A stretch of 64,000 nt of DNA from Lysobacterales bacterium (lineage in GTDB: Bacteria > Pseudomonadota > Gammaproteobacteria > Xanthomonadales > SZUA-5). The stretch is from assembly GCA_022844165.1 (NCBI GenBank), contig JALHMH010000017.1, forward strand, positions 1-64,000, written 5' to 3'. A program made the translations under genes and the position numbers. Of this stretch, positions 14,197-34,628 are shown one piece after another. A model generated the notes under the pieces. It made no database searches, was not told where the DNA came from, and saw only the letters and a list, made by a program, of their open reading frames with translations. Position 1 is the stretch's first letter. Every line of letters begins with the position of its first letter.

Positions 14197-14317
14197 TTCG
14201 CTGTATTTCGCTACACGACAAACGCAGGGAGCATTGCCTTCAAACACTGACACCCGTTGTGCCTGATCTCGTGCTGTCCAGCTCCCGACTGCCAGTCCTT
14301 TGAAGGAACTCCCCGCA

Positions 14318-16833: not shown

Positions 16834-17121
16834 ACACAGCCGTCGAACTATAAACGGCGGATTGGCGAATGGCTATATCTGGGCGGCCGACTGCCCGGAT
16901 GACGACGTCGGTGCGAACGGCCACGACTTCTGCATTGACAGCGACAAAGGTCGAGCTTCAGGGGAAGCGACCACCGTTTGCGTTTCCGATCCGTCGCGAC
17001 CCGAACTGTGCGTTCTCTGGTAAGGAAATTAACAAGCCTAATGGCATATCTTCATATCATTCGGGTTCAGACCGGGCTAACATCGGCGCGTCGTTGCCTC
17101 ATCACATTTCGGGAGAATGCT

Positions 17122-19442: not shown

Positions 19443-19862
19443 CTATTCCTCCCCCATGAATCGAAGCCTTGCCGCCGCAATCATCGGCGGCAAGGCGTGT
19501 CCCTGAGCCAGCGCAACCATGACGGTGTCGTCGCCGGCGATCGTTCCAGCCTGGCCCGGTAGTGGTTGGTGATCGAGCACAACCGCCAGGGCATTGGCAA
19601 ATCCAGGACGGGTGCGCATGATGATCAGGTTGGGCGGTGCGGCGATTATCGCCACAGCCGTCGGGCTGCCATCGCCTGGCGGGGCATAGCGTCCGCCGCG
19701 TTTTGTGATGCCCAGCCGAGTCAGGTGGCGCGAAAGCGTGGGTTGGCTGATATGCATGCCCATGCGCTCCAGGCCCTTCTGTAAGTCGTATTGATCGACG
19801 ATGCGTTCGTTGCAGACAAGATCCAGCAGTGTCTCATCCAGTTTGCTCGGCGTACGCGGCAT
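19443..19862 (-). CDS. argR: Arginine repressor
   Basis: SQPTLSRHL winged helix, RTRPGFA, GTIAGDDT arginine-binding motif. Confidence 0.9.
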   Translation of the reverse strand: MPRTPSKLDETLLDLVCNERIVDQYDLQKGLERMGMHISQPTLSRHLTRLGITKRGGRYAPPGDGSPTAVAIIAAPPNLIIMRTRPGFANALAVVLDHQPLPGQAGTIAGDDTVMVALAQGHALPPMIAAARLRFMGEE

Positions 19863-19883
19863 GGCTTGCGCTCGTGATGCGGT

Positions 19884-19918
19884 TTGCATAATATGCGTTC
19901 TTGTCGCATTTTATGCAA
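19884..19918. promoter_or_regulatory. Tandem ARG-box-like operators
   Basis: TGCATAATATGCG 19885-19897 and CGCATTTTATGCA 19905-19917 in the 60-bp gap between divergent argR and argD. Confidence 0.7.
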
Positions 19919-19922
19919 CGCA

Positions 19923-21056
19923 ATGAACGCGCTCCTCGATACCTACCCGGCTTTTCCTTTTGTGCTCGACAGTGGTTGCAACGACATGGTCGTGAGCGCC
20001 GAAGGCGTTGAATATGCCGATTGGTACGGGGGGCACTGTGTGACCATGACGGGTCATTGCCATCCGCATGTCGTGGCGGCCATTCAGGCGCAAGCGCAGC
20101 GGCTGCTGTTCTATTCGGCCGCGGCCAGGCTGGCGATTCGCGAACAGGCTGCCGAAGCGTTGATCGCACATCTGGCAGCCGCTGGTGGGCAGCGAGTTTT
20201 CTTCTGCAATTCCGGCGCCGAGGCGAACGAAAACGCGCTGAAGATGGCGATCAAGGCGACTGGGCGGATGCGAATTGCCGCCTTCGCAGGTGGCTGGCAT
20301 GGGCGCACGCTGTTGGCGCTGTCGGCCACCGACGATCACAAGATCACCTCGCCATTTGCGAAACTGCTGGTACCGGCTTTGCAGTTGCCATTTGCCGATC
20401 TCGATGTGCTCGCCGCGACTGATTTCGCCGACATCGCGGCAGTGATCGTCGAACCCATCCAGAGCATGTCCGGTATCCGCACGGCACCGCGCGAATGGTG
20501 GCAACGTCTTCGCGAGGTTACGGCGGCTGCTGGTACCTGGTTGATCATCGACGAAATTCAGACTGGGTTGGGCCGGGTGGGCACCAGCAGCGGTTCTGAA
20601 CTCTACGGCATACAGCCGGATGCGATGACCCTTGCCAAAGGCCTGGCATCTGGCGTTCCGATCGGCGCCACAGTGTTTTCCGCGTCGGCAGCGAGTGCCA
20701 TCGAACAGGGCGATCTGGGCAGCACATTCGGCGGCGGTCCGCTGGCGATGGCCGCATTGATCGCCACGCTGGAAGTGATCGACAACGAACGCTTGATCGA
20801 GCGCGCGGTATCGGTCGGGGGTCGCCTGAAGCGCTCGCTGATCGGCAACGCCGTCGACTCAGTGCTTGGAGAAGGACTGCTACTGGGGCTGCGTACGCGC
20901 GGCCCTGCGAAAGATCTCAAACAGCATCTTTTCGAGCGGCGCATGCTGGTTGGCGCATCCAGCGATCCGCATGTGTTGCGACTGATGCCGCCGCTGACGA
21001 TCAAAGACGAAACGATTGCGGCGCTCGAGTGCGCCGTCAAAGAATTTGGAGGCTGA
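19923..21056 (+). CDS. argD: Acyl-ornithine aminotransferase (class III PLP)
   Basis: NSGAEANE, VEPIQ, DEIQTGLGR, LAKGL, GSTFGG. Confidence 0.9.
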   Translation: MNALLDTYPAFPFVLDSGCNDMVVSAEGVEYADWYGGHCVTMTGHCHPHVVAAIQAQAQRLLFYSAAARLAIREQAAEALIAHLAAAGGQRVFFCNSGAEANENALKMAIKATGRMRIAAFAGGWHGRTLLALSATDDHKITSPFAKLLVPALQLPFADLDVLAATDFADIAAVIVEPIQSMSGIRTAPREWWQRLREVTAAAGTWLIIDEIQTGLGRVGTSSGSELYGIQPDAMTLAKGLASGVPIGATVFSASAASAIEQGDLGSTFGGGPLAMAALIATLEVIDNERLIERAVSVGGRLKRSLIGNAVDSVLGEGLLLGLRTRGPAKDLKQHLFERRMLVGASSDPHVLRLMPPLTIKDETIAALECAVKEFGG

Positions 21057-21060
21057 ACGC

Positions 21061-22059
21061 ATGCGCCACTACACACATATCAAGGATCTTGGCGTAGCCG
21101 GCCAGCAGAAACTGCTGAAACTGGCGGCCGATTACAAACGTGCGGAGCCAGGACCGATCCTGAAAAACAAGGTGCTCGGAATGCTGTTCTTCAATCCCTC
21201 GCTGCGCACCCGCACGAGCTTCGAAGTGGCCATGATGAAACTCGGTGGGCAGGCAGTGGCGTTGGAAGAGGGCAGTGGCGTTTGGAAGCTGGAAACCGAA
21301 GACGGCGCGCCGATGAATGGCGATAAAGCCGAGCACGTCCGCGAGGCCGCCGCAGTTCTATCGCGTTATGTGGATGTGCTGGGCGTGCGCGCGTTTTCGC
21401 GCGGCATGGGGCAGGCCGATGATGACTCCGATCGCGTGATCAATTCCTTTCGACAACACGCGCACGTACCGATGGTGAGTCTGGAGTCGGCGCGCGAGCA
21501 CCCGTGCCAGGGACTGGCGGATATGCTGACCATTCGCGAAAGCTTTGGGCAAACGCAGGGTGTCAACGTGGTTCTGAGCTGGGCGCCGCACGTCAAGCCG
21601 CTGCCGAAAGCCGTGCCGAATTCGGTGCTGTTGCATGCTGCTGCCGCGGGCTGCTCTATTACTGTCGCGCATCCGCCGGGGTTCGAACTCGGCGGCCCGG
21701 TACGGGAAGAGGCGGCGCAATATGCGGCTCAAAGTGGCGCCAGGATCCGCTATACCCATGATCAGCGCGAAGCGCTGAATGGTGCTCACGTAGTGTACGC
21801 AAAAGCCTGGGGGCCGGAGCCTCGGCAGAGCGAAGATGGGATCGTCGCATCGCCCGCGTTGCGCGGCTGGATGCCGACGCTCAAGCACTTTGAAGCGTGT
21901 ACCGACGACGCCATCTTCCTGCATTGCTTGCCGGTGCGTCGCGATGTCGAGGTTGGTAGCGATGTGCTCGATTCCGAGCGCTCGCGTGTCATCGATGAAG
22001 CCGAGAATCGAATGTGGGTGCAGATGGCGGCGCTTGCCTGGTTGTTCGAGCGCGCCTGA
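21061..22059 (+). CDS. argF': N-acylornithine carbamoyltransferase (ArgF'), N-succinylornithine type
   Basis: SLRTRTSF, HPCQ, HCLP; WKLE...GDKAEH and WAPH.KPLPKAVPNS loops typical of AOTCase/SOTCase. Confidence 0.9.
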   Translation: MRHYTHIKDLGVAGQQKLLKLAADYKRAEPGPILKNKVLGMLFFNPSLRTRTSFEVAMMKLGGQAVALEEGSGVWKLETEDGAPMNGDKAEHVREAAAVLSRYVDVLGVRAFSRGMGQADDDSDRVINSFRQHAHVPMVSLESAREHPCQGLADMLTIRESFGQTQGVNVVLSWAPHVKPLPKAVPNSVLLHAAAAGCSITVAHPPGFELGGPVREEAAQYAAQSGARIRYTHDQREALNGAHVVYAKAWGPEPRQSEDGIVASPALRGWMPTLKHFEACTDDAIFLHCLPVRRDVEVGSDVLDSERSRVIDEAENRMWVQMAALAWLFERA

Positions 22060-22155
22060 TTGCAAAGGGCAGAGCCGATTCGCTGCGCGAGCGCGTATCC
22101 GCCATTTGCGACCCACAAATTGGATCCCATTAGCCAGGAAACTAAAGAGAACACA

Positions 22156-23058
22156 ATGCCCTTCGCTGCCAATCCCTACGATGCGCTCAAAGGCCTGTCG
22201 AAATACTTGCGCCAGTTCCGTGGCAAAACCTTCGTCGTCAAGCTGGGCGGCGAAGTGCTGGACGATCCGGAATCGCGTCGCCGTGTGGTTGAACAAATCG
22301 GCGTGTTGTGGACGTTGTCGATCCGCGTGGTCGTGGTACATGGTGGTGGCGCGCAGCTCGACCAACTTTGCCAGAAGCTCAATTTGCCGATCGAAAAACA
22401 AGGTGGCCGCAGGGTCACGACCGCGCCGGTGCTGGATGCGGCGAAAATGGTGTTTAAAGGCGTCGCCAATACCGATCTGCTCGCAGAGATGAATCGTGTG
22501 GGTGTGCCGGGCGTCGGACTGAGTGGTGTGGACGCTGGACTCATCAAGGCAAAAAAACGTGCGCCGATTTATTTGGGCGAAGCCGACGGAAAACCGCAAC
22601 TGTTCGATTTCGGTTTTGTAGGCGACATCGAACAGGTCGACCCAACTTTGCTCGAACACCTGCTGGCTAAGGACTACGTTCCGGTCCTGGCACCATTGTC
22701 CGGGTCACCGGATGGCAGCGTGTACAACACCAATGCAGATACCATTGCCTCCCAGCTGGCTACGGTACTTGGCGCAGAGAAACTGTTTTTCGTGCTCAAG
22801 GTGCCTGGCTTGTTGAAGGACATGAACAATCCCTCGTCGTTGATCACCTTTGCGGCACTGTCCAAGCTCGACGAAATGGAAGCCCGCGGCGAACTGGGCG
22901 GCGGCATGCTGCCCAAGGCCGCTGCCATTCGTGGCGCGCTCAATGGCGGCGTCAAGTCCGTGCATATGGTCTCCGGCGTCCAGCCGGATGCGCTGCTTGT
23001 TGAGTGTTTCACCAACGAGGGCGCGGGCACGATGATCGTCAAGGACAACGAAGCGTGA
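22156..23058 (+). CDS. argB: Acetyl(acyl)glutamate kinase
   Basis: VVKLGG, VHGGG, YNTNAD, GGMLPK, EGAGT. Confidence 0.92.
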   Translation: MPFAANPYDALKGLSKYLRQFRGKTFVVKLGGEVLDDPESRRRVVEQIGVLWTLSIRVVVVHGGGAQLDQLCQKLNLPIEKQGGRRVTTAPVLDAAKMVFKGVANTDLLAEMNRVGVPGVGLSGVDAGLIKAKKRAPIYLGEADGKPQLFDFGFVGDIEQVDPTLLEHLLAKDYVPVLAPLSGSPDGSVYNTNADTIASQLATVLGAEKLFFVLKVPGLLKDMNNPSSLITFAALSKLDEMEARGELGGGMLPKAAAIRGALNGGVKSVHMVSGVQPDALLVECFTNEGAGTMIVKDNEA

Positions 23059-23166
23059 GTGCGTCGATCCGGTTCAGTACCAGACGATCGGCGACGAGTT
23101 GCGTGGAAGCGAGCGCAAGGCGATGAATGTCCGGCTCGTCGAGCGGCTGGCGGATGTGCGATTGCC

Positions 23167-24534
23167 ATGTCTCTGAATGATCCCGCACGTCCACTTTGGG
23201 CCAAAGGGCTGCCACTGGATGCCGTGATCCATCGCTTCACCGTGGGCGACGACCCGCGGCTCGATCGGGTGCTGCTCGCCCACGATTGTGTCGGTTCCGC
23301 CGCCCACGCGCGCGGACTGTTTGCTGCCCATTTGTTGAGCGAAGACGATGCGCGCGCGTTGGTGTGCGCGCTCGCGGAGTTGCATGGCGCCGCACGTCGC
23401 GGCGAGATTGAAATCACAGCGGCACAGGAAGACGCGCATACCGCAATCGAACACGCATTGGTGAGTCTTGTCGGTGAGGCGGGCAAGCGAATTCACCTCG
23501 GTCGCTCGCGCAACGATCAAGTGTTACTCGCGCTGCGGCTTTGGCTGCGCGAGCAAGTGGTTGCGACAGCACGCGGCTTGCAAACGCTGATCGAGGCGCT
23601 GCTCCTGCTCGGGGCAGAACATCAAGAGACGGCGCTGCCGGGTTACACGCACCTGCGCCGGGGAATGCCATCGAGCTTGGGACAGTGGGCCGCAGGCTAT
23701 GTCGAAGGTCTGTTGGAGGAGCTCGAAGCGCTAAACGGATTGTGGCAACGCATCGATCGTTGTCCGCTTGGTGCGGCCGCGGGATTTGGTGTGCCGTTGC
23801 CGCTGAAGCGCGAGTTGGTGGCGGAACTGTTGGGTTTTTCGCGCGTACAGCGCGCGCCAGTCGATGTGATGAACTCGCGCGGGCGGCACGAGCAGGCGTT
23901 GCTCGATGCGTTCGCGTCGATCGCGCACAGTTTGGAGAAGCTGGTCTGGGATTTGTCGCTGTACTCGACAGACGAGTTTGGTTTCGTGCGACTGCCGGAC
24001 GCATTCACCACCGGCTCGTCGATCATGCCGCAAAAACGCAACCCGGATGTGCTCGAACTGGCGCGCGCACGGTGTCGGGAGTTGCGCGGTCTGAGCGATT
24101 ACCACCGCCATATCGTGACTGGCTTACCCGGCAGCTATCACCGCGATTTCCAGTTGCACAAGCAGCCGCTATTCGCCGCCGCCGAAACGATGCCAGCCTT
24201 GCTCGATGTGTTGTCGCGATTGATCCCGGGATTGCAGTTCAACGCTGATGCCATGCGCAATGCAATGACCAGCGAGTTGTATGCAACGCACGCGGCGATT
24301 GCGCTGGTGCGCGATGGCGCGGCGTTTCGCGATGCGTACCGGCAGGTCGGTGGTGCCATCGCTGCCGGGGAATTCCAGCCCCCGGCTTTGTTGCCGGGCG
24401 ATGCGCATACGGGTGGTCTGGGCAAGCTCGAATTCGATGCCTATCGCAGAGAGCTGGCCATACTCGCGTCTCGTACCAACCAGCGCGAAACGATGCTGCT
24501 GGACATCGATCGCCAAATTTTTCTCTTGCCGTAA
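23167..24534 (+). CDS. argH: Argininosuccinate lyase
   Basis: GRSRNDQ, PGYTHL, GSSIMPQKRNPD. Confidence 0.95.
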   Translation: MSLNDPARPLWAKGLPLDAVIHRFTVGDDPRLDRVLLAHDCVGSAAHARGLFAAHLLSEDDARALVCALAELHGAARRGEIEITAAQEDAHTAIEHALVSLVGEAGKRIHLGRSRNDQVLLALRLWLREQVVATARGLQTLIEALLLLGAEHQETALPGYTHLRRGMPSSLGQWAAGYVEGLLEELEALNGLWQRIDRCPLGAAAGFGVPLPLKRELVAELLGFSRVQRAPVDVMNSRGRHEQALLDAFASIAHSLEKLVWDLSLYSTDEFGFVRLPDAFTTGSSIMPQKRNPDVLELARARCRELRGLSDYHRHIVTGLPGSYHRDFQLHKQPLFAAAETMPALLDVLSRLIPGLQFNADAMRNAMTSELYATHAAIALVRDGAAFRDAYRQVGGAIAAGEFQPPALLPGDAHTGGLGKLEFDAYRRELAILASRTNQRETMLLDIDRQIFLLP

Positions 24535-24546
24535 CGGACCCAAACC

Positions 24547-25746
24547 ATGTCGCAAAAACCGCTTTGCGTTCTCGCATTTTCTGGCGGCCTCGATACCTCC
24601 TTTTGTGTGCTGTACTTGCGCGAGCGTGGTTACGACGTGGCGACGGTCACCGTCGACACGGGTGGCTTCGATGCAGAGGAACTCGCGCGCATCGAGGCTG
24701 CCGCCAATCGTCTGGGCGCGATTTCGCATCAGGCGATCGACGCTCGCGGCGAACTTTGGCATGACTACTTGCGCTATCTGCTGTTCGGCAACGTGTTACG
24801 CGGCCAGCTTTATCCGTTGAGCGTTTCCGCCGAACGTGTGGCGCAGGCCAAACGAGTCGCGCACTATGCACTGGCCCAGGGCGCCCAGGCCATCGCGCAC
24901 GGCTCCACTGGTGCCGGCAACGATCAGGTGCGCTTCGACGTCGCGTTCCGCACGTTGTGCCCCGGCATCGAACTGATCACACCGATCCGCGAACTGGCGC
25001 TGTCGCGCGAGGCCGAAACGGCATGGCTTGCCGAACGGGGCGTTTCGATTCCCGCGAAGACCACGGCGTACTCAGTCAACGAAGGCATGTGGGGCACATC
25101 GGTGGGCGGTGGCGAGACGCACGATTCCTGGCGGCACTTGCCAGAAACTGCGTACCCGGGGGGCGCGGTCGATGCGACGCTGGCGCCGACAAAACTCGTG
25201 CTGGAGTTTGCGCAGGGCGTTCCAGTCGCTCTCGATGGGCAGGCGCTCGATGCGGTTGCCCTGATCGAAAAACTCAACGCGCTCGGCGATCGCTACGGCG
25301 TCGGTCGCGGCATCCACTTGGGCGACACCATTCTCGGCATCAAAGGCCGAGTCGGGTTCGCTGCCGCTGCGGCGCATATCCTGATCCAGGCGCACCGCGA
25401 GCTGGAAAAGTTGGTGTTGAGCGGCAAACAGCTGTTCTGGAAGGAATCGCTCGGCAATTTGTACGGCAGCCTGTTGCACGAGGGGCACTACTTCGATCCC
25501 TTGGCGCGCGATCTGGAGGCCTTTCTGCAGTCGAGCCAGCACAACGTCAGCGGCGAGGTACGGTTGTGTTTGTACCCACGCGCCATCGTGGTCGAAGGCG
25601 TGCGCTCGGCCCACAGTTTGATGCAGTCCAAAGTGGCCAGCTACGGCGAGGGCGCCAAGGCCTGGACGGGCGAAGAGGCACGTGGCTACTGCAAGCTGTT
25701 TGGCATCGCCCAACAAGTCGCGCTTGCAGCGCCGGAGGCGTCATGA
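24547..25746 (+). CDS. argG: Argininosuccinate synthase
   Basis: LAFSGGLDTS, HGSTGAGNDQVRFD. Confidence 0.95.
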   Translation: MSQKPLCVLAFSGGLDTSFCVLYLRERGYDVATVTVDTGGFDAEELARIEAAANRLGAISHQAIDARGELWHDYLRYLLFGNVLRGQLYPLSVSAERVAQAKRVAHYALAQGAQAIAHGSTGAGNDQVRFDVAFRTLCPGIELITPIRELALSREAETAWLAERGVSIPAKTTAYSVNEGMWGTSVGGGETHDSWRHLPETAYPGGAVDATLAPTKLVLEFAQGVPVALDGQALDAVALIEKLNALGDRYGVGRGIHLGDTILGIKGRVGFAAAAAHILIQAHRELEKLVLSGKQLFWKESLGNLYGSLLHEGHYFDPLARDLEAFLQSSQHNVSGEVRLCLYPRAIVVEGVRSAHSLMQSKVASYGEGAKAWTGEEARGYCKLFGIAQQVALAAPEAS

Positions 25747-26792
25747 GAATCACGGTGGACAAGATTGCGAGTGTGACGCGCAATCTAAAACTGGCGCGAA
25801 CCTTGACCTTGAGCGAACACATCCTGCTGGAAGAAGGTTCGGTGGTTGCCGTGCGCGTGCATGGCGAAAAGTCCACTTACAATCAACTCGAAGACACACA
25901 CGGCCGCTGGATGACGCTACACGATGGCGATCTGGTGGTCGGCGCGCTCGGCAAGCGCCACGCGCTGCACGGTTATGAGGGCGTGATGCCGCAGTCGCTG
26001 GCGGTGGGCGATACGATCAATATGCTCAATATCGGTGGCGTCATGGGGCAATGCGTATCGTTCAACCCGGATGTCGGCAAACCGTTTCAGTTGGAAGTGC
26101 TCGGCCAGGTGCAGATCTTTCCTGAGTTTCAGTCGCGCCACGGCATTGCGGCCCATGTGCGGCACAACGCGCTCCAGGGCGTGCCCGATGCACCCAAGGT
26201 GCCGATCGTCTTTATCTTGGGCACGTGCATGAACGCCGGCAAGACCCTCGCAGGTTCGGCGATTGTTCGTGCGTTGCACCAACAAGGATTGAGAATCGGC
26301 GGCGCAAAGCTGACCGGGATCTCGCTGATGCGCGACACGCTGCACTTGTACGATCACGGCGCCGAAGTGATCGCCGACTTTACCGACGCCGGGATCGTCT
26401 GTTCTGGGCCCGAATCGGCGGCGCAAACGGCGCATGCGGTGTTGAGCGAAATCGCCGCGAAAGGCGTCGATGTGATCGTTGCCGAAACCGGCGATGGCGT
26501 GATGGGCGAATACGGCGTGCAGGCGATTCTCGCCGATGCCGATTTACGCACACAATGCGCATGTTTTGTGTTCTGTGCGAACGACCCGGTCGGCGTCAAA
26601 GGCGGCGTCGACTATCTGAAGGCGAGCTACGGTATCGACGTCGATATCGTCGCCGGACCCGCCACCGACAATCAGGTGGGGTCGCGCTTTGTCGAACGAC
26701 TGGGTATCCCGGCACGCAATGCGCGTGTCGATCCCAAAGCGCTCGGCGAATTGGCCGTCGAGAAGGTGCGAGCGTTTCGGAGCAGGCAATGA
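25743..26792 (+). CDS. DUF1611-like P-loop-fold protein inside the arg operon
   Basis: GTCMNAGKT (26220-26246), GAKLTG..RD, DFTDAG, ETGDG; ATGA overlaps with both argG and argC. Confidence 0.8.
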   Translation: MRITVDKIASVTRNLKLARTLTLSEHILLEEGSVVAVRVHGEKSTYNQLEDTHGRWMTLHDGDLVVGALGKRHALHGYEGVMPQSLAVGDTINMLNIGGVMGQCVSFNPDVGKPFQLEVLGQVQIFPEFQSRHGIAAHVRHNALQGVPDAPKVPIVFILGTCMNAGKTLAGSAIVRALHQQGLRIGGAKLTGISLMRDTLHLYDHGAEVIADFTDAGIVCSGPESAAQTAHAVLSEIAAKGVDVIVAETGDGVMGEYGVQAILADADLRTQCACFVFCANDPVGVKGGVDYLKASYGIDVDIVAGPATDNQVGSRFVERLGIPARNARVDPKALGELAVEKVRAFRSRQ

Positions 26793-27838
26793 TCGATGTC
26801 GTTGTGCTGGGCGCGTCCGGCTACGGCGGCGGCGAGCTGCTGCGACTACTGAGTCAATATCCGCACACCGGATCGATCACGGCGCTGTCTCGCCAGCATG
26901 CGGGAAAGCCGATCCATGCAGTGCATCCGCATTTGCGAGGTCTGGTGAGCGGCGAATTTGTGGCCAACGTCGATTGGTCGAAGCTTTCGGAGAGTGCGTC
27001 GCCCGTGGTGTTTGCGGCAATGCCGCATGGCGAATTTGCCAGACAATACGCGGCACTTGAAGCAGCCTGGGCCCACGCCGGGCTGGTTGATCGTATCAAG
27101 GTCATCGATTTGTCGGGCGATTTCCGATTGGAAGATGCCGACGCTTTCGAAGCAGCCTATGGATTTGCCCATCCATGCCCGCAGGCGCTGGATCAGTTCA
27201 CCTATGGACTGAGCGAATGGAATACCACAGCCATCGCAGCGAGCAGGCGGATCGCCAACCCTGGTTGTTTTGCCACCGCGATCCAGCTCGGGTTATTGCC
27301 GTTGCGGGCGCTGGATCTGGCCTGTCCATCCTGGGTTGCGATCAGCGCGATCACCGGATCCAGCGGTTCTGGCGCTGTGCCGTCCGAGACCACGCATCAC
27401 CCGACGCGTGCGCACGATTTTCGCGCTTACAAGATGTTGCAGCACCAGCACGAGAGCGAAATTCGCGCCTCGCTTCAACGTCATGGTACAGCGATCGATT
27501 TTGCGCTGGTGCCGCATTCGGCGCCGTTGGTGCGTGGAATTTTTGCGACCATCACTTTCCCCAGTGCAGTGGCAACGCACGAGCTGCGCGGGGCTTTTGA
27601 GAGCGCCTACCGAGATGCTTTCTTCGTCCGCATAGTAGACGGGACGCCGCGTGTCGCTGCCGTTTCCGGCAGTAATTTCGCGGATATCGGCGTTTGCTCA
27701 AGAAGTGGCGCCGCTACGGTGATGATCGCCATTGACAATTTGCTCAAGGGAATGGCTGGCCAGGCGCTGCAAAATTTGAACTTGATGCAGTCATATGCCG
27801 TCGAAATCGGCCTTCGCAACGCCGCCTGTTTTCCGTAA
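26789..27838 (+). CDS. argC: N-acyl-gamma-glutamyl-phosphate reductase
   Basis: GASGYGG, DLSGDFR, IANPGCF, DNLLKGMAGQA. Confidence 0.95.
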   Translation: MIDVVVLGASGYGGGELLRLLSQYPHTGSITALSRQHAGKPIHAVHPHLRGLVSGEFVANVDWSKLSESASPVVFAAMPHGEFARQYAALEAAWAHAGLVDRIKVIDLSGDFRLEDADAFEAAYGFAHPCPQALDQFTYGLSEWNTTAIAASRRIANPGCFATAIQLGLLPLRALDLACPSWVAISAITGSSGSGAVPSETTHHPTRAHDFRAYKMLQHQHESEIRASLQRHGTAIDFALVPHSAPLVRGIFATITFPSAVATHELRGAFESAYRDAFFVRIVDGTPRVAAVSGSNFADIGVCSRSGAATVMIAIDNLLKGMAGQALQNLNLMQSYAVEIGLRNAACFP

Positions 27839-27889: not shown

Positions 27890-30187
27890 ATGCGTTTTCT
27901 GATCGTACTATGGTTGATTGCAACTCACGCGGTGGGCGCGGCGTCGGAATCGGTTTGGGTGAGCGAGGTTGTGCAACCGAGTAAACGCCTGATCGATATG
28001 CGCCAAATGCAGCCTTCGCCCGAGTGGCGACCCGGCGATCCAATCGTCGAGGTGCCACGGCGAATGAGTGGGGCGGCGAATGCCCAGAGCCCGCGCCGGC
28101 CCACGCGAGGCGACGATCCTCTGGTTGCATTGCAAAGACAAGCGCCCGATGGCATCGGCGTGATGTCGCCGCCGTTGCAAAACTTCGATGCGATTCGCAG
28201 TAACACCTCGCCCAATGATCCGACGGTGGATGTGGGCAAGCGTCACGTGGTCGTCGCCATCAACAGCCCAAACGGTGCGGAGTTCGCGGTGTACGACAAA
28301 GTGACCGCACAGGCCGTTGTCCCGCGGACTTTGATGCGGCAGCTGGGCGGCAATAGCATCTGCGGCATGACCGGTCGCGGCGATGGCATCGTTTTGTTCG
28401 ACGAGATGGCCTCGCGCTGGCTGTTCACCGAGTTCACTCAGTCGGCGAATGTGCTGTGCGTGTACCTGAGTGATCGCGACGATTTGTCGGCGAACGTAGA
28501 GTGGACGCACTACGTCTTTGCTGTGCCCGCATACCCCGATTATCCCAAGTATGGTGTGTGGCCGAACGCTTACTTTGTCGGCGCCAATGAAACCGGAACT
28601 GCCGGGCAGCGCCCGATGTATGCGATCGATCGCCACGCGACGCTGGCCGGTCAGCCGGCAACATTGCAGCGGTTAACCACTCCGCGTTTGGCAGGGTTCG
28701 CCTTTGAGGCGCTGCAACCGGCGGACTTGACCGGTTCCGATTTGTTGCCGCTGCCCGATGCGCCTGGAATCTTCCTGCGGCACCGCGACGATGAAGCGCA
28801 CAATCCGCAGGACAACGATCCGACCCGCGACTTTCTGGAACTGTACGAGTTCCATGTTGATTTCCAACAGCCCGCCAACACGATGCTCGTCGGGCCGACC
28901 CGACTTGAAGTCGCCGAGTTCAGTTCGGACCTGGCGGGCCTCACGACGTTCCAGGTGTTTCCCCAGCCCAATGGGGTCCGCATTGATGCGGTGCGCGAAC
29001 AAATCATGCATCGCGTCGCCTATCGGCGATTTCCCGATTACGAAGCGCTGATTGCCAACCATGTCACCGACTTGAGTCTAGGCTCAGGATCTGGTTTTCC
29101 AGACGACAGCGGTGCGGTGCGTTGGTACGAGTTACGGCGGTCTGGACAAACCAGCGAGTTGTTTGCCAATGGGTTTGAGACGAACGACACCGGCGGCAAT
29201 TGGGCGGTATATCAGCAAGGCACTTACGCGCCCGAAGAGCCGCCGCTGAACCACCCCGCAGACCGCTGGCTGGCAGCAGTGTCGATCGATGCAAGAGGCA
29301 ACATCGCGATGGCTTACAACAAGCTTCGCGACGCCAACCCACCGCTGCCCGCAGGTTTAAGCTACACCGGGCGACGCGCGAATGACCCTCTGGGCGTCAT
29401 GACCCAGGCTGAAACCACCATCGTCGCAGGTAGCGGCAGTATCGGCGGCGTGCGCTGGGGCGACTATGCGGACATGGGAGTCGATCCTGTCGACGGTTGT
29501 ACGTTCTGGTTCTTCAGCAACTACGTTGCGGTCGATCAGCGCAACAATCGTCTGGCGTCTTTCAAATTCGGCGATTGTCAGCGGACCGGTATTTCGCTGT
29601 CTCCAGACACGCCACAAATCGGCATCTGCGCGTTGCAGGGCAGCCCCACCGCGGCAACGCCGGTGACGATCAGCGTCGAAGCCACACCAGATCTTCCCGG
29701 GCCTGTGGGGCTCGAGGTTTTGGGTCCTTTGCCCGTCGGTATGGCCGCCAGCGTTTCTCCACCCGGCGTCGACCCGCCCGCGGTGGCCACGCTGGCGATC
29801 AGCGCCACCAACGCTGCGCCGAGGATGAGCAGAATCACGGTACGCGCCAGTGCGTCGCCGTATACCCAGTTGGCGAATGTTGTGGCCCGCGTCGCAACCG
29901 TCGAACCGGACTCCCCGGAAGTTGTTTCCCCAGAGGCTGGAGCGTTGGATGTCCTGATTGTTCCCTTGTTTCAGTGGTCAGCAGTCAACCAGGCCTCAAG
30001 CTACACCATCACGGTTGGCACGGAGCCAACGTTTTCCTCCCCGCTCTTCAGCCAAACGCTGATCGGTACCTCGCTGCTCTCGCCCATCAGCCTGCCGGCC
30101 GGCAGCACGATTTACTGGAGCGTTCGCGCCCGCAACGAGTGTGGGCAAGGGAACGGCTTTATCGCCAGTTTCGAAACACGATTATGA
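27890..30187 (+). CDS. Secreted beta-rich protein with C-terminal Ig/Fn3-like domains
   Basis: Signal peptide, DYPKYGVW, RWGDY, DPVDGCTFW, YWSVRARNECG. Confidence 0.8.
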   Translation: MRFLIVLWLIATHAVGAASESVWVSEVVQPSKRLIDMRQMQPSPEWRPGDPIVEVPRRMSGAANAQSPRRPTRGDDPLVALQRQAPDGIGVMSPPLQNFDAIRSNTSPNDPTVDVGKRHVVVAINSPNGAEFAVYDKVTAQAVVPRTLMRQLGGNSICGMTGRGDGIVLFDEMASRWLFTEFTQSANVLCVYLSDRDDLSANVEWTHYVFAVPAYPDYPKYGVWPNAYFVGANETGTAGQRPMYAIDRHATLAGQPATLQRLTTPRLAGFAFEALQPADLTGSDLLPLPDAPGIFLRHRDDEAHNPQDNDPTRDFLELYEFHVDFQQPANTMLVGPTRLEVAEFSSDLAGLTTFQVFPQPNGVRIDAVREQIMHRVAYRRFPDYEALIANHVTDLSLGSGSGFPDDSGAVRWYELRRSGQTSELFANGFETNDTGGNWAVYQQGTYAPEEPPLNHPADRWLAAVSIDARGNIAMAYNKLRDANPPLPAGLSYTGRRANDPLGVMTQAETTIVAGSGSIGGVRWGDYADMGVDPVDGCTFWFFSNYVAVDQRNNRLASFKFGDCQRTGISLSPDTPQIGICALQGSPTAATPVTISVEATPDLPGPVGLEVLGPLPVGMAASVSPPGVDPPAVATLAISATNAAPRMSRITVRASASPYTQLANVVARVATVEPDSPEVVSPEAGALDVLIVPLFQWSAVNQASSYTITVGTEPTFSSPLFSQTLIGTSLLSPISLPAGSTIYWSVRARNECGQGNGFIASFETRL

Positions 30188-30605: not shown

Positions 30606-33509
30606 TCACACCTGCGGCGGCTTGTTCAGGGCTACTTTTCGGTCTTCCTGAAACGGCAGCAGGGCAACCTGCTGACCGAGTTGGTCAACGTGTTCCATCG
30701 CGTCCACCCAGGCAGGATCGTTGCGCGCGGCTGCTTTCCCGAGTCGTCGCTGAATGGCTTCGGCCAGACTGAGATATAAGTCGATCCGAAGGCCTGGACG
30801 GATATTGAATTCGCCGGCTTGTGCGATGGTCCTAAGCAGGCTTTCCTCGGGATTCTCGAGTTCGCCAGCAAGCCACTTCGCATTGATCAGCCCAGCAACC
30901 AGGCGAAAGCGCTCTGGAGGGGATTTCCGGCGCGATACCCGGTCAAATCGATTGAGGCTGTCTTCGATCGCGTGCAGTGACTCGGTATAGCGATGCTGCC
31001 ATTGCAGTATCAATCCGCGATCGCGCATGAACTCGATGACGCGTTCCTGGGACATCTGATCGCCGTTGACCAAATCGGCGATCGCTTCGTCGCATAGTGC
31101 TAATCCGCGAGCCAGATCGCCGGTCATGGCCTCGGCCAGACCAAGCCGGCATCGCGTGATCGCGGTGATACTCGGCGAACGTTGGTCATCTGCCAGGCTC
31201 AACTCCAGTGCCTGCGCTTGATAATCTCGCGCTTCTGCAAAGCGCCCCAAGGCGGCTGCGGTGAACCCCAGGTTGCTGAGCAAGACATAGTCCCCATCGG
31301 ACGGGGCACTCGACATCGATCGCGACAACGTCAACGCTTGCAGCTGATTGTCGTGAGCCTCTCGGAATTTGTTTAGCTCGCTCTGCACGCTGCCAAGGGT
31401 GCTCAGGGCATCGATTCGGCGCCAATGATGCTCAGGCAAGAGTTCTCGATAAATGGCCACAGCTGCTTCGGCGAGAGGTTCCGCATCAGACGGACGCCTC
31501 ATGTAGCGCAGCGTGCCTGCGTATGAGTTCAAGATATCGCCGGTGAGAATGTGCCGTTCGCCGAAACTTGCGCGGGCCGCACCGAGCGCCTTTTCGTAAC
31601 TTTCGATCGCCACGTCGAACTCGCCGTTTGGTGTCGCCATTCGGGCGTGATTGAGCAGGACTCGAATCTGCAGCGCCGCATCGCACACCGGGATGGCGAA
31701 ACCGGAAAGCGCGCGAACATGCGATGCGGCATAGTGCAGAAACCGAACGTCGATCGAACCGCCCCGTGCTGACGAGCGGTCGGCGACCTCCAGCGTCGAG
31801 CATAGATCTACAGCCTGGCTCGCCAGCGCGTACTGAACGCCGACATCGTGGCCCATCATGTCGTGCCATTTGGATCGCAACAGAATGACTTCGACCTGTT
31901 GCGAAGTGGCGAGCGTTGCAGTGATTTCTTCCAATCGGTCCAGGAAGGGTGCGACTTCGCTTTCTCTATTCGCCGCGAAATGGGTTGCTACCAATTCGAT
32001 CATGGCTTGCGCCTGTAGCGCTTGCTGGTTCGACGGCAGTTCGTTAATCAACTCGCTGAGCACCTGTGTAGCCCGATCAATATCCCCCTGGCCCCGCAAT
32101 ACCGCGGCGAGCTGGATGAGGAGCGATGCGCGTGCCTCCGGCACCAGACGATTCGTGCTGCCGAGTTCGACAATTGCCCGTTCGGTGACTTCGGCGACGC
32201 TGGCCCGATCGCGACCGGGGCTCGATGGCTCGGCGCTCCGGAACACGTCGATCAGGAACTGCTGAGTGCTTTGCGCAAGCTGCGCCTGCGCTCTTGCGAT
32301 ATGCGCCTGCTGCCAGGCAATCACAACGCTGATTGAAATTCCAACCACCGTGGTCGCCACGAGCGCGCAGGCCAGAGCGTGTCTTCGGACAAATTTGCCG
32401 AGCACATAGGGCAGACGCGGCCGCCGCGCCAGAATGGGCTCGTTGTCTAGATGACGCTGAATATCGTGCGCCAATGCAGCCGCGTGGCTATACCGGTCTC
32501 GCGGATCTTCGGCCGATGCCTTCAATACGATGGTGTCGAGGTCGCCCGAGAGTTGCTGTGCGAGCTTGCGTTTGTCGCGGACGAGCGAACTCGGCGACAC
32601 GACCGTTCGTGCCTGTTTTCGGTTCGTGAGCAGTTCTGACAGTAGCAAGCCGAGGGCATAGACGTCGGTTTGCGTCGTAATGTGGCCACCATTGAACTGC
32701 TCCGGTGCAGCGTAACCCGGGGTCAGCAGCAGGTTGTGCGTTTCGGTGACTTCTTGTCCGGTTGGGCTCAGGAATTTGGCAATGCCGAAGTCCAGCAATT
32801 TCACTTCGCCGGCTTCCGTGACGAGCACGTTGCTTGGCTTGATATCGCGGTGAACGATTAGGGCCTGGTGCGCCGACTCTACGGCGCTGCACACCTTCGC
32901 GAAGGCCTCCAGCCGTTGGCGCAACGACCATTGTTGCATCTGCGCCTGCATCGTCAGGAACTCGCCGTTGACCAGCTCCATGGCGATATAGGCGAGACCT
33001 TCCGGGGTCACGCCACCATCAATGTAGCGGGCAATGTTGGGGTGCTCCAATTGGGTCAGCGCTTGCCGCTCGCGGCGGAATCGATGCAGTTCTGGCGCGT
33101 CGATGAGCACGCGGCGAAAGAGTTTCAGTGCAACCGGTTGCATGACACCGGCAACTTCGCGCGTCGCTTTGAACACCCAGGCGCTTCCGCCTGAACCCAG
33201 TGTCGAAAGCAGAGTGAAGTCTCCAATCTGGCGGCCCAGCCAGTCGGTTTGCAAAATCTCCGGAATGAGCTGTTCGGCGATCTCGTTCAGCGGTCTGGTG
33301 AACAGGTTCACGGCCGATCGCTGGATACGTTCGGTGTTCGGTTGCACTTCCTGCGGAGCATCCATTGGCGTTGGCGATTGTTCCAGCATGCGCATCAACA
33401 AGGCTTTTGTGGCCTCCGATTCAATGAGTCCATGGACAAAGTGCGAACGCTGCTCGGGCAACAAGGCCATGGCGTGCTCGAACAACGAACGTAAGGATTC
33501 AGGACGCAT
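30606..33509 (-). CDS. Hanks-type Ser/Thr kinase with TM helix and TPR repeats
   Basis: GSGG, VALK, HRDIKPSN, DFG, YAAPE; hydrophobic helix then TPR-like repeats. Confidence 0.92.
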   Translation of the reverse strand: MRPESLRSLFEHAMALLPEQRSHFVHGLIESEATKALLMRMLEQSPTPMDAPQEVQPNTERIQRSAVNLFTRPLNEIAEQLIPEILQTDWLGRQIGDFTLLSTLGSGGSAWVFKATREVAGVMQPVALKLFRRVLIDAPELHRFRRERQALTQLEHPNIARYIDGGVTPEGLAYIAMELVNGEFLTMQAQMQQWSLRQRLEAFAKVCSAVESAHQALIVHRDIKPSNVLVTEAGEVKLLDFGIAKFLSPTGQEVTETHNLLLTPGYAAPEQFNGGHITTQTDVYALGLLLSELLTNRKQARTVVSPSSLVRDKRKLAQQLSGDLDTIVLKASAEDPRDRYSHAAALAHDIQRHLDNEPILARRPRLPYVLGKFVRRHALACALVATTVVGISISVVIAWQQAHIARAQAQLAQSTQQFLIDVFRSAEPSSPGRDRASVAEVTERAIVELGSTNRLVPEARASLLIQLAAVLRGQGDIDRATQVLSELINELPSNQQALQAQAMIELVATHFAANRESEVAPFLDRLEEITATLATSQQVEVILLRSKWHDMMGHDVGVQYALASQAVDLCSTLEVADRSSARGGSIDVRFLHYAASHVRALSGFAIPVCDAALQIRVLLNHARMATPNGEFDVAIESYEKALGAARASFGERHILTGDILNSYAGTLRYMRRPSDAEPLAEAAVAIYRELLPEHHWRRIDALSTLGSVQSELNKFREAHDNQLQALTLSRSMSSAPSDGDYVLLSNLGFTAAALGRFAEARDYQAQALELSLADDQRSPSITAITRCRLGLAEAMTGDLARGLALCDEAIADLVNGDQMSQERVIEFMRDRGLILQWQHRYTESLHAIEDSLNRFDRVSRRKSPPERFRLVAGLINAKWLAGELENPEESLLRTIAQAGEFNIRPGLRIDLYLSLAEAIQRRLGKAAARNDPAWVDAMEHVDQLGQQVALLPFQEDRKVALNKPPQV

Positions 33510-33746
33510 GGCTACCTTGGGGATCGAGTGAGGCGCTCAATTTGTGGTGGTTCATGCCCTGCGGAAGCAAGCGGAACTTGCCAGGCTGATTCGGGGAGTA
33601 TTGACCGTAGACGATGCGCGACCGCGTTCTGGGACATTTTGCGTCGGCCCTCGTTGTAGAAACACGATCTTCCAGCCGGTCCTGCTCGCCGATTGCGTAC
33701 TCGATGTTCGAACGCCATGCTGCCAGGCTTTGCACCAGGCGATGGC

Positions 33747-34628
33747 ATGCTGCCGGTCCGCGATCTTGGCTTTGCGTTACTGATATGTCTGGCATGGGCA
33801 GGAAACTTCCTGGCCACCGCATCCGCCGTGCAGCATTTTCCGCCGATCCTGTTTACCGCGCTGCGCTTAATTCTGGTCTTGGTCCTGCTGGTGCAATTTT
33901 TGCGGCCACTACCGCGTCCGCTGTGGCGCACGTTTGCTGCCGTGGCGTTGCTGACGGGTGCCTTGCACTTCGGCTTCAACCACTGGGCCATCGCAGCTGC
34001 TGGCGATATCAGCTCGGTAGCGCTGAGTTTGCAGAGCTACATCCCGATGACCGCAATTCTGGCTTGGTGGCTGCTCGACGAACGGCCCACCGCAATGACC
34101 TGGGTCGGCATCGCCGTGGCCTTCGCGGGCGTTACGCTGCTGGCATTCGACCCATTGGTGCTGGATGCGCCGATCGCTCTGGCGCTGTCGTTGATTGCCG
34201 CCGCAACGCTCGCGGTCGGGACGGTGTATCTGCGGCGCCTGCCGGGCTTGCATCCGTTCCAGGTGCAGGCCTGGAGTGCCGCGATCAGTATCCCCGTGCT
34301 CTTGCTGTGGTCGTTGACGACCGAGGCATGGTCGTGGACAACGCTGATGACAGCGCGCTGGCTGGACTGGGGTGGTGTGGCCTATTCGGCGCTGGCCGCA
34401 TCGTTGATTGGCCATGGCCTGCTCTATGGATTACTGCAACGCCATCCCGTGGCGCAGGTGACGCCAGTGTTGATGTTGACGCCGGTCTTTGCGGTGACGT
34501 TGGGCGTGTTGGTCTGGGGCGATCGACCGGGTCCGGAACTGCTGATCGGCGGTGCCCTGGTGTTGTTCGGCGTGCTGCTGGTGGTGCTCAAAGGTGGGCG
34601 CAAGGCTCAGGCGAAAAGCGCTGCGTAG
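33747..34628 (+). CDS. EamA/DMT family transporter
   Basis: About ten hydrophobic helices, WAGNF, PILFTALR, duplicated EamA pattern. Confidence 0.88.
   Translation: MLPVRDLGFALLICLAWAGNFLATASAVQHFPPILFTALRLILVLVLLVQFLRPLPRPLWRTFAAVALLTGALHFGFNHWAIAAAGDISSVALSLQSYIPMTAILAWWLLDERPTAMTWVGIAVAFAGVTLLAFDPLVLDAPIALALSLIAAATLAVGTVYLRRLPGLHPFQVQAWSAAISIPVLLLWSLTTEAWSWTTLMTARWLDWGGVAYSALAASLIGHGLLYGLLQRHPVAQVTPVLMLTPVFAVTLGVLVWGDRPGPELLIGGALVLFGVLLVVLKGGRKAQAKSAA

Follow-up and report, generated by a model that had tools for sequence, protein, structure and literature searches.

The window, a stretch of 64,000 nucleotides from the genome of a Lysobacterales bacterium (completeness 99.97%), carries an arginine biosynthesis operon in the order argD-argF'-argB-argH-argG-X-argC. 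The genes of this locus and the parts of the X protein are as follows.

19443..19889, minus strand: argR, arginine repressor (PF02863, PF01316), divergent from the operon
19884..21056, plus strand: argD, N-acylornithine aminotransferase
21061..22059, plus strand: argF', N-acylornithine carbamoyltransferase; likely start at ATG 21061
22060..23058, plus strand: argB, N-acylglutamate kinase; kinase domain only, without a fused NAT or GNAT domain
23059..24534, plus strand: argH, argininosuccinate lyase (TIGR00838, 299.8 bits); coordinates begin at the first start codon, and the true start possibly lies further in
24547..25746, plus strand: argG, argininosuccinate synthase (TIGR00032, 294 bits); its stop overlaps the start of X
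25743..26792, plus strand: X, 349 amino acids in two domains; proposed N-succinyl-L-glutamate-forming enzyme
X, residues 1 to about 150: domain 1, all-beta
X, residues about 150 to 349: domain 2, BioD-like P-loop domain
X, P-loop features: Walker A G160-T168, K189, D198, E248-G250, N280-D281, and G305-N310
26789..27838, plus strand: argC (TIGR01850, 322 bits, cut-off 233.6); its start overlaps the stop of X (ATGA)

Translation of the X reading frame yields 349 amino acids followed by a stop codon, with zero internal stops. Within gtcATGAgaa (25740-25749), the start codon of X (ATG at 25743) shares bases with the stop codon of argG (TGA), and within caATGAtcg (26787-26795), the stop codon of X (TGA, 26790-26792) does so with the start codon of argC (ATG). 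The protein contains the motifs GTCMNAGKT (residues 160–168), GAKLTG (187–192), RD (197–198), and DFTDAG (212–217). The frame, the ATGA overlaps on both sides, and these motifs had been described in an earlier sequence-only reading of the locus, and all of them are present in the translation and the DNA letters. Among 8000 candidates, 5255 proteins are homologous to X at E ≤ 0.001, as are 1384 cluster representatives (50% identity) at the same threshold. The homologues align from residues 1–3 of X, which favors the start at ATG 25743 over an upstream GTG at 24957. Across 65 diverse family members, G166, K167, and K189 are invariant, while T168, D198, D215, E248, and D281 are at least 90% conserved. 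The many homologues, the shared start, and the conserved residues indicate that X is a genuine gene rather than a chance open reading frame. A protein atlas search with X returned only clusters of the X family itself.

Relatives of X are encoded in 552 stretches from one-per-species genomes. The locus counts given here rest on 80 of these 552 loci, spread over about ten phyla; the lineages include Acidobacteriota, Myxococcota, Planctomycetota, Gemmatimonadota, Elusimicrobiota, Verrucomicrobiota, Bdellovibrionota, Armatimonadota, and Pseudomonadota. Arginine genes recur within the 80 loci (argC in 76, argG in 74, argB in 62, argF' in 60, and argH in 55). The immediate neighbors of X are also preserved, with argC directly downstream in 73 of 73 assessable loci and argG directly upstream in 66 of 75. 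Comparison of 10 proteobacterial loci revealed no conserved neighbor besides argR, which is kept at the same place in all 10. Twelve longer proteins, together with P0200 and P0231, are singleton fusions of X to ArgG, ArgC, or an amino-acid kinase domain; these may be read-through calls of adjacent genes, and we give them little weight.

Among the steps of arginine synthesis, that of N-acetylglutamate synthase (NAGS) varies most, and lack of this enzyme repeatedly leaves a gap in genome-based predictions of prototrophy. The source genome of the window presents such a gap. ArgJ, the NAT domain of ArgAB, short NAGS, and Cg3035-type NAGS were not found in it, and neither was ArgE. No ArgA match exceeded the cut-off in this genome, and its ArgB consists of the kinase domain only. 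GNAT matches in the genome fall far below every NAGS cut-off, the best of them being RimI. X itself contains no GNAT, NAT, or ArgJ domain; a Pfam scan (E ≤ 1) shows DUF1611 and DAGK_cat alone.

The distribution of X mirrors that of the known enzymes. ArgJ occurs in 0 of 40 X-bearing genomes versus 10 of 14 control genomes, and ArgA over the cut-off in 0 of the same 40. Among 39 relatives of the source organism, 23 encode X and 15 encode the ArgAB NAT domain, with both present in none; the single relative with neither is a 71% complete genome. ArgA, ArgAB, and ArgJ share with X the presumed reaction and place in the pathway but are distributed in a mutually exclusive manner, and the P-loop fold of X differs from the GNAT, NAT, or ArgJ fold of these N-acylglutamate makers.

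The carbamoyltransferase of the operon bears on the nature of the acyl group. At the position of Glu92 in the Xanthomonas enzyme, the ArgF' of the window has Ala (residue 105, counted in the open reading frame from 21016). Across 60 loci and the window, the residue is A in 27, V in 14, P in 12, S in 4, T in 2, I in 1, and G in 1, and E in 0 of 61. Within the X-bearing family, A or P was found in 22 of 22 loci, while E was found in 8 of 8 loci of other families. The predicted succinyl type of the pathway derives from this one residue of ArgF', whose meaning as a succinyl-type marker is taken from the account of Shi et al. 2007 in a preprint (GapMind 2026, bioRxiv).

We propose, at a probability of roughly 0.8, that X catalyzes the otherwise unfilled first step of a succinyl-type arginine pathway, the formation of N-succinyl-L-glutamate. 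Comparative evidence, namely operon context, the lack of a known alternative, and strict phyletic complementarity, points to this role. The same observations fit the suggestion of the sequence-only reading that X carries out non-orthologous synthesis of an N-acyl (here, succinyl) glutamate. X would succinylate L-glutamate at its amino group, and the resulting N-succinyl-L-glutamate would then pass through ArgB, ArgC, ArgD, the succinyl-type ArgF', a desuccinylase, ArgG, and ArgH.

A comparable role has been put forward before. GapMind 2026 predicts, as a prediction only, an alternative ArgA role for the Steroidobacter hypothetical protein ACG33_RS14135. That protein is encoded inside an arg cluster with argB, argC, argD, argF', argG, argH, and argR, and its genome has no ArgA. 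The preprint further reports that ArgE is missing in the gammaproteobacterium and present in clusters of other lineages, that position 92 of ArgF' is A, P, S, or V, and that the protein has only remote likeness to DgcN, with a Foldseek match to 7XRJ at e 1.4e-7. All of the described features hold for X, and from these matching descriptions we infer that the two proteins belong to one family. The role of X has therefore apparently been predicted already for the same family, of which the window provides one more member. The family would fill the N-acetylglutamate synthase gap across Acidobacteriota, Myxococcota, Planctomycetota, Gemmatimonadota, Elusimicrobiota, Verrucomicrobiota, and some Pseudomonadota.

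The family to which X belongs bears on its chemistry. The sequence-only reading had assigned X to the DUF1611/DgcN family. DgcN (structure 7XRJ) is described as an acetyl-CoA-dependent D-glutamate N-acetyltransferase (Yu et al. 2023, as cited in GapMind 2026). Like X, DgcN comprises about 340–350 amino acids and contains a P-loop domain of the BioD-like superfamily; both proteins display GT-x4-GK, a TG after strand 2, and an E-G-x-G motif. Glutamate is the substrate of DgcN and the presumed substrate of X. The match of X to Pfam PF07755 (DUF1611) reached 14.7 bits (E 0.02), below the cut-off of 25, and covered only residues 149–185 around the P-loop. In a scan of the whole genome, X scored 15.0 bits against this model, less than the 15.9 bits of the genome's own BioD open reading frame (C26:33539-34036), which is itself recognized as BioD at 142.7 bits. 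Weak PF07755 matches (E ≤ 0.01) were obtained for 18 of 65 X-family members.

Profile comparisons separated these families. They employed alignments of 65 X-family sequences (A1), 15 DUF1611 proteins (A4), and 18 BioD sequences; A4 stands for the DgcN family, as it matches 7XRJ at E 8e-167 over 333 residues. In hhalign, the X family matched the DgcN family with a probability of 7.8% (E 0.0044) over 50 columns at the P-loop, versus 95% (E 3.8e-8) for BioD over 173 columns (X residues 148–322; about 17% identity), a match that spans the entire P-loop domain of X. The DgcN family and BioD matched each other with a probability of 80%. A profile search of the PDB with the X family gave BioD as the best match (E 2.3e-4), and no DUF1611 structure appeared among its 45 matches at E ≤ 10; phmmer with X against PDB sequences returned lumazine synthase alone (E 0.79). 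In an NCBIfam scan of X (E ≤ 1), mobB was the sole match (E 0.16), with none to the BioD equivalog TIGR00347. Foldseek with the X model placed SIMIBI NTPases, including BioD, at the top (E 1e-6 to 7e-5, TM (query) ≤ 0.40), and 7XRJ was absent among the best 50 of 189 matches at E ≤ 0.001.

The N-terminal domain provides a further difference. AlphaFold2 modeled X with a pLDDT of 97.4 for the whole protein and 93.9 for the N-terminal domain alone, in which residues 1–125 form eleven strands and one short helix. Foldseek with this domain yielded no match at E ≤ 0.001 (best E 0.52), and TM (query) was ≤ 0.32 among the matches listed. At E ≤ 1, no Pfam model matched the domain, and hhalign did not align it with the N-terminal portion of A4. 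The N-terminal domain of DUF1611 proteins is Rossmann-like according to Pfam, whereas that of X is all-beta and, in these searches, without a solved counterpart. Membership of X in the DUF1611/DgcN family is not supported, given the Pfam score below cut-off, the short hhalign match, and the different N-terminal fold.

Conserved residues of the P-loop domain agree with the profile comparisons. The Walker A motif of X, GTCMNAGKT (G160-T168), fits the pattern GxxxxGK[ST] and aligns with the Walker A motif of BioD (GT-x4-GKT in both) in the PDB profile alignment. The invariant K189 aligns with the lysine after strand 2 that is numbered Lys37 in Mycobacterium tuberculosis BioD, D198 aligns with, or lies one residue off, the BioD aspartate, and E248 aligns with the glutamate of the EGxG motif. 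The active site of the M. tuberculosis enzyme, as listed in a docking paper (PMC9932657), includes Lys15, Thr16, Lys37, Asp49, and Glu108. The corresponding motifs of the DgcN family are GTDCSVGKM(Y/F)T, ATGQTG, and IEGQGS, compared with GTCMNAGKT, AKLTG, and AETGDG in X; the DgcN family thus has GKM in place of GKT and lacks the BioD-type lysine, while it keeps the Walker lysine and the EGxG glutamate. Because the latter two residues are common to the DgcN family, discrimination between BioD and DgcN relies on T168, K189, and overall profile similarity. X differs from BioD in its extra N-terminal domain of 150 residues, its presumed substrate, and its pathway. DgcN differs from X in pathway as well, being an enzyme of D-glutamate catabolism rather than of arginine biosynthesis.

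BioD forms a C-N bond via a phosphorylated carboxyl-type intermediate. Of the modes of action proposed in the sequence-only reading, use of ATP plus a free acid best fits the sequence, as judged by the PDB profile search and hhalign. Provided that the role of X is correct, we give a somewhat better than even chance that its chemistry is that of an ATP-dependent ligase resembling BioD and the cobyrinic-acid amidases of the CobQ/CbiA type; role and chemistry taken together fall a little short of even odds. A succinate-glutamate ligase is favored because X keeps the BioD residues for ATP and Mg that are absent from DgcN. In such a reaction, the P-loop domain would bind Mg-ATP and phosphorylate a carboxylate of free succinate to give an acyl phosphate. 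Attack by the amino group of glutamate would then produce N-succinylglutamate, ADP, and phosphate. It is tempting to speculate that the arginine-rich, all-beta N-terminal domain holds both anionic substrates. Use of ATP and free succinate would be a new reaction for the pathway. A precedent for protection of the glutamate amino group by ATP-dependent amide ligation is provided by LysX and ArgX of the LysW carrier pathway; these enzymes differ from X in having an unrelated ATP-grasp fold and in using a carrier protein, not a free acid, as the acyl partner.

The foremost alternative is that X is a succinyl-CoA:L-glutamate N-succinyltransferase of the DgcN type, in which the P-loop holds the phosphates of CoA and no ATP is consumed. 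All of the evidence for the role of X applies equally to this reading. To our knowledge, every characterized N-acylglutamate synthase uses acyl-CoA or transacetylation. Since the ADP moiety of CoA can also be bound by a P-loop, the conserved Walker residues are no proof of ATP use. DgcN, a member of the same P-loop superfamily, acylates glutamate, and both the weak PF07755 matches within the X family and the Foldseek match of the preprint protein to 7XRJ point in its direction. Against it stand the poor hhalign match confined to the P-loop, the lack of DUF1611 and 7XRJ structures among the PDB profile and best Foldseek matches, the dissimilar N-terminal domains, and the Walker A threonine and BioD-type lysine of X, both missing from the DgcN family. 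We consider a CoA-dependent transferase a real but minority possibility. It is the reading that GapMind 2026 implies; the preprint leans on DgcN and does not discuss the acyl donor. BioD is closer to X by profile.

It is improbable that X is instead an accessory nucleotide-binding SIMIBI protein, such as a metallochaperone or a regulator of the MeaB, HypB, or UreG kind, and that an unrecognized acyltransferase makes N-succinylglutamate. This explanation draws on the best Foldseek matches of X, which are FtsY/SRP54, MeaB/ArgK-like, and HypB GTPases (E 1e-6 to 6e-5), on weak MobB matches in 27 of 65 family members, and on several uncharacterized GNAT open reading frames in the source genome. The strict exclusion between X and ArgJ, ArgA, or the ArgAB NAT domain would be unexpected for an accessory protein, and X is retained in clusters without an M20 enzyme. 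Moreover, no NKxD-type guanine motif was seen in the X family consensus, the nearest profile match is the enzyme BioD, whose catalytic lysine is conserved in X, and the GNAT matches of the genome do not approach the NAGS cut-offs.

The succinyl group would have to be removed before the ArgG step. A hydrolase of the ArgE/DapE family adjoins argB in 43 of 54 assessable X clusters (35 identified by tblastn and 8 by an open reading frame of 356–360 amino acids), and family membership was confirmed in 4 of 4 cases checked. Lack of argE from an X cluster is confined to genomes with DapE (10 of 10 versus 0 of 30), and DapE is the sole ArgE/DapE-type enzyme of the source genome. The Xanthomonas-type ArgE (NF006439) is present in 0 of 23 X-bearing relatives and, together with the NAT domain, in the same 15 relatives that lack X. 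An AstE-type desuccinylase was not found in the source genome. This inverse relation between an ArgE-like gene in the cluster and DapE makes DapE a candidate for the second gap, for which GapMind 2026 names none; in the source genome, DapE is most likely the enzyme that desuccinylates N-succinylcitrulline, an assignment we offer as a lead.

The hydrolase also weighs on the third mode of the sequence-only reading, transfer from an acyl-citrulline. That X is an ArgJ-like transacylase, which takes its succinyl group from N-succinylcitrulline or N-succinylornithine, passes it to glutamate, and so replaces both ArgA and ArgE, would suit the joint lack of ArgA-type and ArgE-type genes in the source genome and its family (0 of 23 for each) and the presence of DapE as the only enzyme of its type, but this is highly improbable: the hydrolase found in most clusters would be redundant beside a recycling transacylase, a transacylase alone cannot start the cycle, DapE accounts for the clusters without ArgE, and we know of no precedent for a transacylase among P-loop NTPase folds whose Walker A and B residues are intact.

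The complete reading, in which X is a new kind of enzyme, an ATP-dependent succinate:L-glutamate ligase that combines a BioD-like P-loop domain with a novel all-beta substrate domain, and in which DapE performs the desuccinylation, is tentative, at clearly less than even odds. If it is correct, arginine synthesis would start without any acyl-CoA. In lineages such as that of the source organism, the DapE of the lysine pathway would remove the succinyl group, so that one hydrolase serves two pathways, and free succinate would be used over and over to protect the amino group, with one ATP spent in each turn.

Three further observations concern individual proteins. An M20D amidohydrolase of the source genome (C1, TIGR01891, 320 bits) was considered as a desuccinylase and rejected, as it does not track the ArgE-less state; it exceeds the cut-off in 7 of 10 ArgE-less and 7 of 10 ArgE-bearing X genomes. 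Complex prediction with two copies of X from the A1 alignment, together with two ATP and two Mg, scored 0.33 (mark 0.42) and is given no weight for or against a homodimer. Finally, the Bacteroides protein BT3761, which is reported as a predicted N-succinylglutamate synthase (PMC8121099, PMC7311316), has the same presumed reaction and place in the pathway as X and, unlike X, belongs to the GNAT family.

The 349-codon open reading frame of gene X, together with its stop codon, spans positions 25743-26792 (+). At its 5' end, the start codon ATG runs into the TGA of the preceding ORF (24547-25746), and at its 3' end, the stop codon TGA runs into the ATG of the next ORF (26789-27838). These features of the sequence-only reading were confirmed, as were the motifs GTCMNAGKT (residues 160-168), GAKLTG (187-192), RD (197-198), and DFTDAG (212-217). 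Among 8000 candidates scored, 5255 proteins are related to X at E <= 0.001, and the best 120 of these are 60-94% identical to X and equal to it in length. Clustering at 50% identity gave 1384 representatives that match X at E <= 0.001, including 136 at E <= 1e-30. Source annotations describe the relatives as "hypothetical protein" or "DUF1611 domain-containing protein". X is a genuine, widespread gene. Singleton proteins of greater length carry, besides X, an amino-acid kinase domain (P0200, 626 aa), ArgC-like domains (P0231, P0275-P0278), or ArgG domains (P0272, P0274, P0279, P0282, P0283). The long proteins P0200, P0231, and P0272-P0283 may be either genuine fusions or gene calls that read through adjacent genes.

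Comparison with Pfam and NCBIfam models identified the neighbors of X as genes of arginine synthesis, flanked on either side by a TonB-dependent receptor.

Features of the window surrounding X. The arg genes other than X were assigned with Pfam and NCBIfam.
14300-15544 (+), ORF of 414 aa without a match in Pfam at the thresholds applied
15548-16468 (+), ORF of 306 aa without a match in Pfam at the thresholds applied
16978-19344 (+), TonB-dependent receptor
19443-19889 (-), argR, divergent
19884-21056, argD
likely 21061-22059 (+), argF', N-acylornithine carbamoyltransferase
22060-23058, argB
23059-24534, argH
24547-25746, argG
25743-26792 (+), X, open frame
26789-27838, argC
27890-30187 (+), ORF of 765 aa right after argC, no Pfam or NCBIfam match
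30606-33509 (-), Ser/Thr protein kinase, 967 aa, with C-terminal TPR repeats
33614-34753 (+), ORF of 379 aa without a match in Pfam at the thresholds applied
35494-37524 (+), TonB-dependent receptor

When read from the first start codon, the argB and argH ORFs carry approximately 45-55 N-terminal residues ahead of the family models; tblastn matches to the two genes overlap by 33-171 bases in several related loci. Among the loci compared, the 765-aa ORF is kept only in the closest, L028 (50% identity). Some of the 414-, 306-, and 379-aa ORFs may not be genes, the DNA being G+C-rich.

Searches of the genome to which the window belongs (assembly completeness, 99.97%) found no ArgJ, no NAT domain of bifunctional ArgAB, neither short NAGS nor Cg3035-type NAGS, and no Xanthomonas-type ArgE. 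The ArgAB NAT model matched none of the control genomes but 15 relatives. No ArgA exceeded the cut-off in this genome, and the sole strong match was the kinase domain of ArgB. The only enzyme of the ArgE/DapE type is DapE, encoded on contig C46 (6119-7228), which scores 522-524 bits on DapE models. Thus, N-acylation of glutamate and deacylation of N-acylcitrulline are both left without an assigned gene.

A pattern scan of contigs from one genome per species revealed 552 stretches that encode a relative of X, of which 80 loci were kept, and the arg proteins of the window were mapped onto these by tblastn. The loci contain argC (76), argG (74), argB (62), argF' (60), argH (55), and argD (50) in two block orders: D-F'-B-(E)-H followed by G-X-C, or G-X-C followed by D-F'-B-(E)-H. 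Wherever there is room of 1.2 kb or more (73 of 73 loci), argC lies directly 3' of X. Directly 5' of X is argG in 66 of the 75 loci with room; the other nine have argB or nothing recognizable at this position. All genes of the cluster except X have an assigned step, and where an ArgE-like gene occurs, only step 1, the N-acylation of glutamate, lacks a gene.

X and the known step-1 enzymes exclude one another. ArgJ was found in none of 40 X-bearing genomes traced from the loci, as compared with 10 of 14 control genomes, and none of the 40 has an ArgA above cut-off; each shows ArgB only. In an even sample of the phylum (151 genomes), X occurs in a single genome, that of the window. Among 39 relatives, X occurs in 23 (the window's genome, 21 of 22 further members of its family, and one genome from a different family), while the ArgAB NAT domain and Xanthomonas-type ArgE occur in the same 15. 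No genome among the 39 combines X with either, and the only one with neither X nor NAT/ArgE is 71% complete. Because kin are not independent, exclusion within the order amounts to one evolutionary event or a few; its recurrence in ten phyla makes chance unlikely. Comparative genomics supports well the earlier proposal that X acts as a non-orthologous maker of N-acylglutamate, the predicted step-1 enzyme.

ArgF' points to the probable acyl group. Replacement of Glu92 by Ala, Pro, Ser, or Val switches the Xanthomonas enzyme to N-succinylornithine (Shi et al. 2007, as described in the GapMind 2026 preprint). The window ArgF' matches the NCBIfam model for N-acetylornithine carbamoyltransferase with 398 bits. 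When it is aligned to Xanthomonas PDB chains, however, Ala (residue 105 when the ORF is read from 21016) stands opposite the wild-type Glu, so automatic annotation would probably mislabel a succinylornithine enzyme. The top-scoring chain, 3L02, likewise has Ala at this position. Across the window and the ArgF' proteins of 60 loci, the position is occupied by A (27), V (14), P (12), S (4), T (2), I (1), or G (1, from L046, a misaligned homologue with 27% identity), and never by Glu. All 22 loci of the X-bearing family have A or P, whereas all eight fetched loci of other families have E. The window's family contains two ArgF' types, an Ala type (80-94% identity, 10 loci) and a Pro type (54-58%, 12 loci).

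The predicted role of X is not new; it has been published as a prediction in the bioRxiv preprint [quoted passage not shown]. That preprint predicts the role for a Steroidobacter protein, whose matching description suggests that its family is the same as that of X. The grounds presented there are cluster, absence, and ArgF' evidence as tested here, together with a remote Foldseek match to the D-glutamate N-acetyltransferase DgcN (7XRJ; e 1.4e-7, rmsd 5.6 Å); ArgE is described as also missing in Steroidobacter.

X had been called a DUF1611/DgcN-like protein, a placement that holds at the level of the superfamily and fails at that of the family. The DUF1611 model (PF07755) gives X 14.7 bits against a cut-off of 25, over residues 149-185 only; across the whole genome, it scores BioD (15.9 bits) above X (15.0 bits). 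As a reference for the DgcN family, we used 15 true DUF1611 proteins, whose profile matches 7XRJ over its full length (E 8e-167). With hhalign, the X family gave a probability of 7.8% over 50 columns against these proteins and 95% (E 3.8e-8) against 18 BioD sequences, over 173 columns that comprise the whole C-terminal domain; the DgcN family gave 80% against BioD. BioD also ranks first when PDB sequences are searched with the X profile (E 2.3e-4), and no DUF1611 structure is present among the 45 matches at E <= 10. Weak matches of 65 family members scanned singly were to MobB (27), CbiA (22), DUF1611 (18), and AAA_26 (7). These profile and Pfam comparisons place X in the BioD-like P-loop superfamily, which also includes DgcN, but outside the DUF1611 family.

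An AlphaFold2 model of X built from 65 sequences (pLDDT 97.4, pTM 0.93) contains eleven strands and one short helix in residues 1-125 and an α/β P-loop domain from residue 155. Foldseek matched the model to FtsY/SRP54, MeaB-like proteins, HypB, and BioD (E 1.4e-6 to 7e-5; TM by query <= 0.40); 7XRJ is absent from the best 50 of the 189 matches at E <= 0.001. The N-domain folded alone (pLDDT 93.9) had no PDB match at E <= 0.001. It is rich in conserved charge, with R38, K43, E50, R55, D63, R72, E118, and R132 invariant in 36 sequences, as would be fitting for a domain that binds succinate and glutamate.

HMMER alignment superimposes G160-T168 of X on G8-T16 of M. tuberculosis BioD (numbering derived from the chain offset), invariant K189 on Lys37, and D198 on Asp48, which adjoins Asp49 (active-site residues as listed in PMC9932657). 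With hhalign, E248 in the AETGDG motif of X falls on the Glu of BioD EGxGG. Unlike X with its K189, the DgcN family has GKM after the glycine-rich loop and an ATGQTG motif without Lys. In BioD and the CobQ/CbiA amidases, ATP phosphorylates a carboxyl-type group, which an amine then attacks. The BioD-like residues, taken with this chemistry, favor ATP, succinate, and glutamate as substrates of X: by analogy, ATP would activate the succinate carboxyl, and the glutamate amine would attack. Succinyl-CoA stays a serious rival as donor because DgcN shows that the same superfamily can use an acyl-CoA on glutamate.

The desuccinylase was approached through the 54 loci that contain both argB and argH. 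An M20 gene lies between the two in 35 (tblastn) and a 356-360 aa ORF in eight more; argB abuts argH in 10, and in one they are on opposite strands. All four in-cluster ORFs tested are ArgE/DapE-family deacylases, and the closest match of the in-cluster M20 ORFs in the window's genome is DapE (24-39% identity). When the 40 X-bearing genomes were scanned with a proteobacterial DapE model (cut-off 361.8 bits), the 10 without an in-cluster M20 gene, eight with abutting argB-argH and two with split clusters (L037, L051), all scored at least 351 bits (nine over the cut-off and one at 351.5), whereas the 30 with such a gene scored at most 111. Bona fide DapE is thus inverse to the in-cluster ArgE-like gene (10/10 versus 0/30). 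The ArgE-less state requires six changes on the X tree, and well-supported branches force at least four of these. ArgE is retained in relatives with acetylated intermediates, as would be expected if DapE can remove succinyl but not acetyl groups. From its distribution and this retention of ArgE, we propose that DapE serves as the N-succinylcitrulline desuccinylase in the window's genome. The inverse pattern could also reflect use of the in-cluster M20 enzyme as DapE in lineages that lack DapE. That X itself recycles the succinyl group from N-succinylcitrulline is disfavored, since X co-occurs with ArgE-like genes in other lineages. An M20D amidohydrolase was rejected because it does not track the ArgE-less state (7/10 versus 7/10). 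A candidate desuccinylase distantly related to DapE has been described in Bacteroides, the reactions being similar (GapMind 2020, PMC7311316).

In the X tree, the sequences from the window and L028 (a Lysobacterales MAG) are not sister to the other gammaproteobacterial clade and group weakly with Myxococcota and Acidobacteriota. The window ArgG is 70-72% identical to that of Geothrix. The succinyl-type cluster as a whole seems to have been gained horizontally, in place of the acetyl-type argF'-argE-argAB set that sister families retain. The X of L025, recorded as Comamonas sp. with a 9.0-Mb genome, falls inside the Myxococcus clade, and that of L020, recorded as a Bacillota bacterium, falls inside the gammaproteobacterial clade; both records may derive from organisms other than those named.
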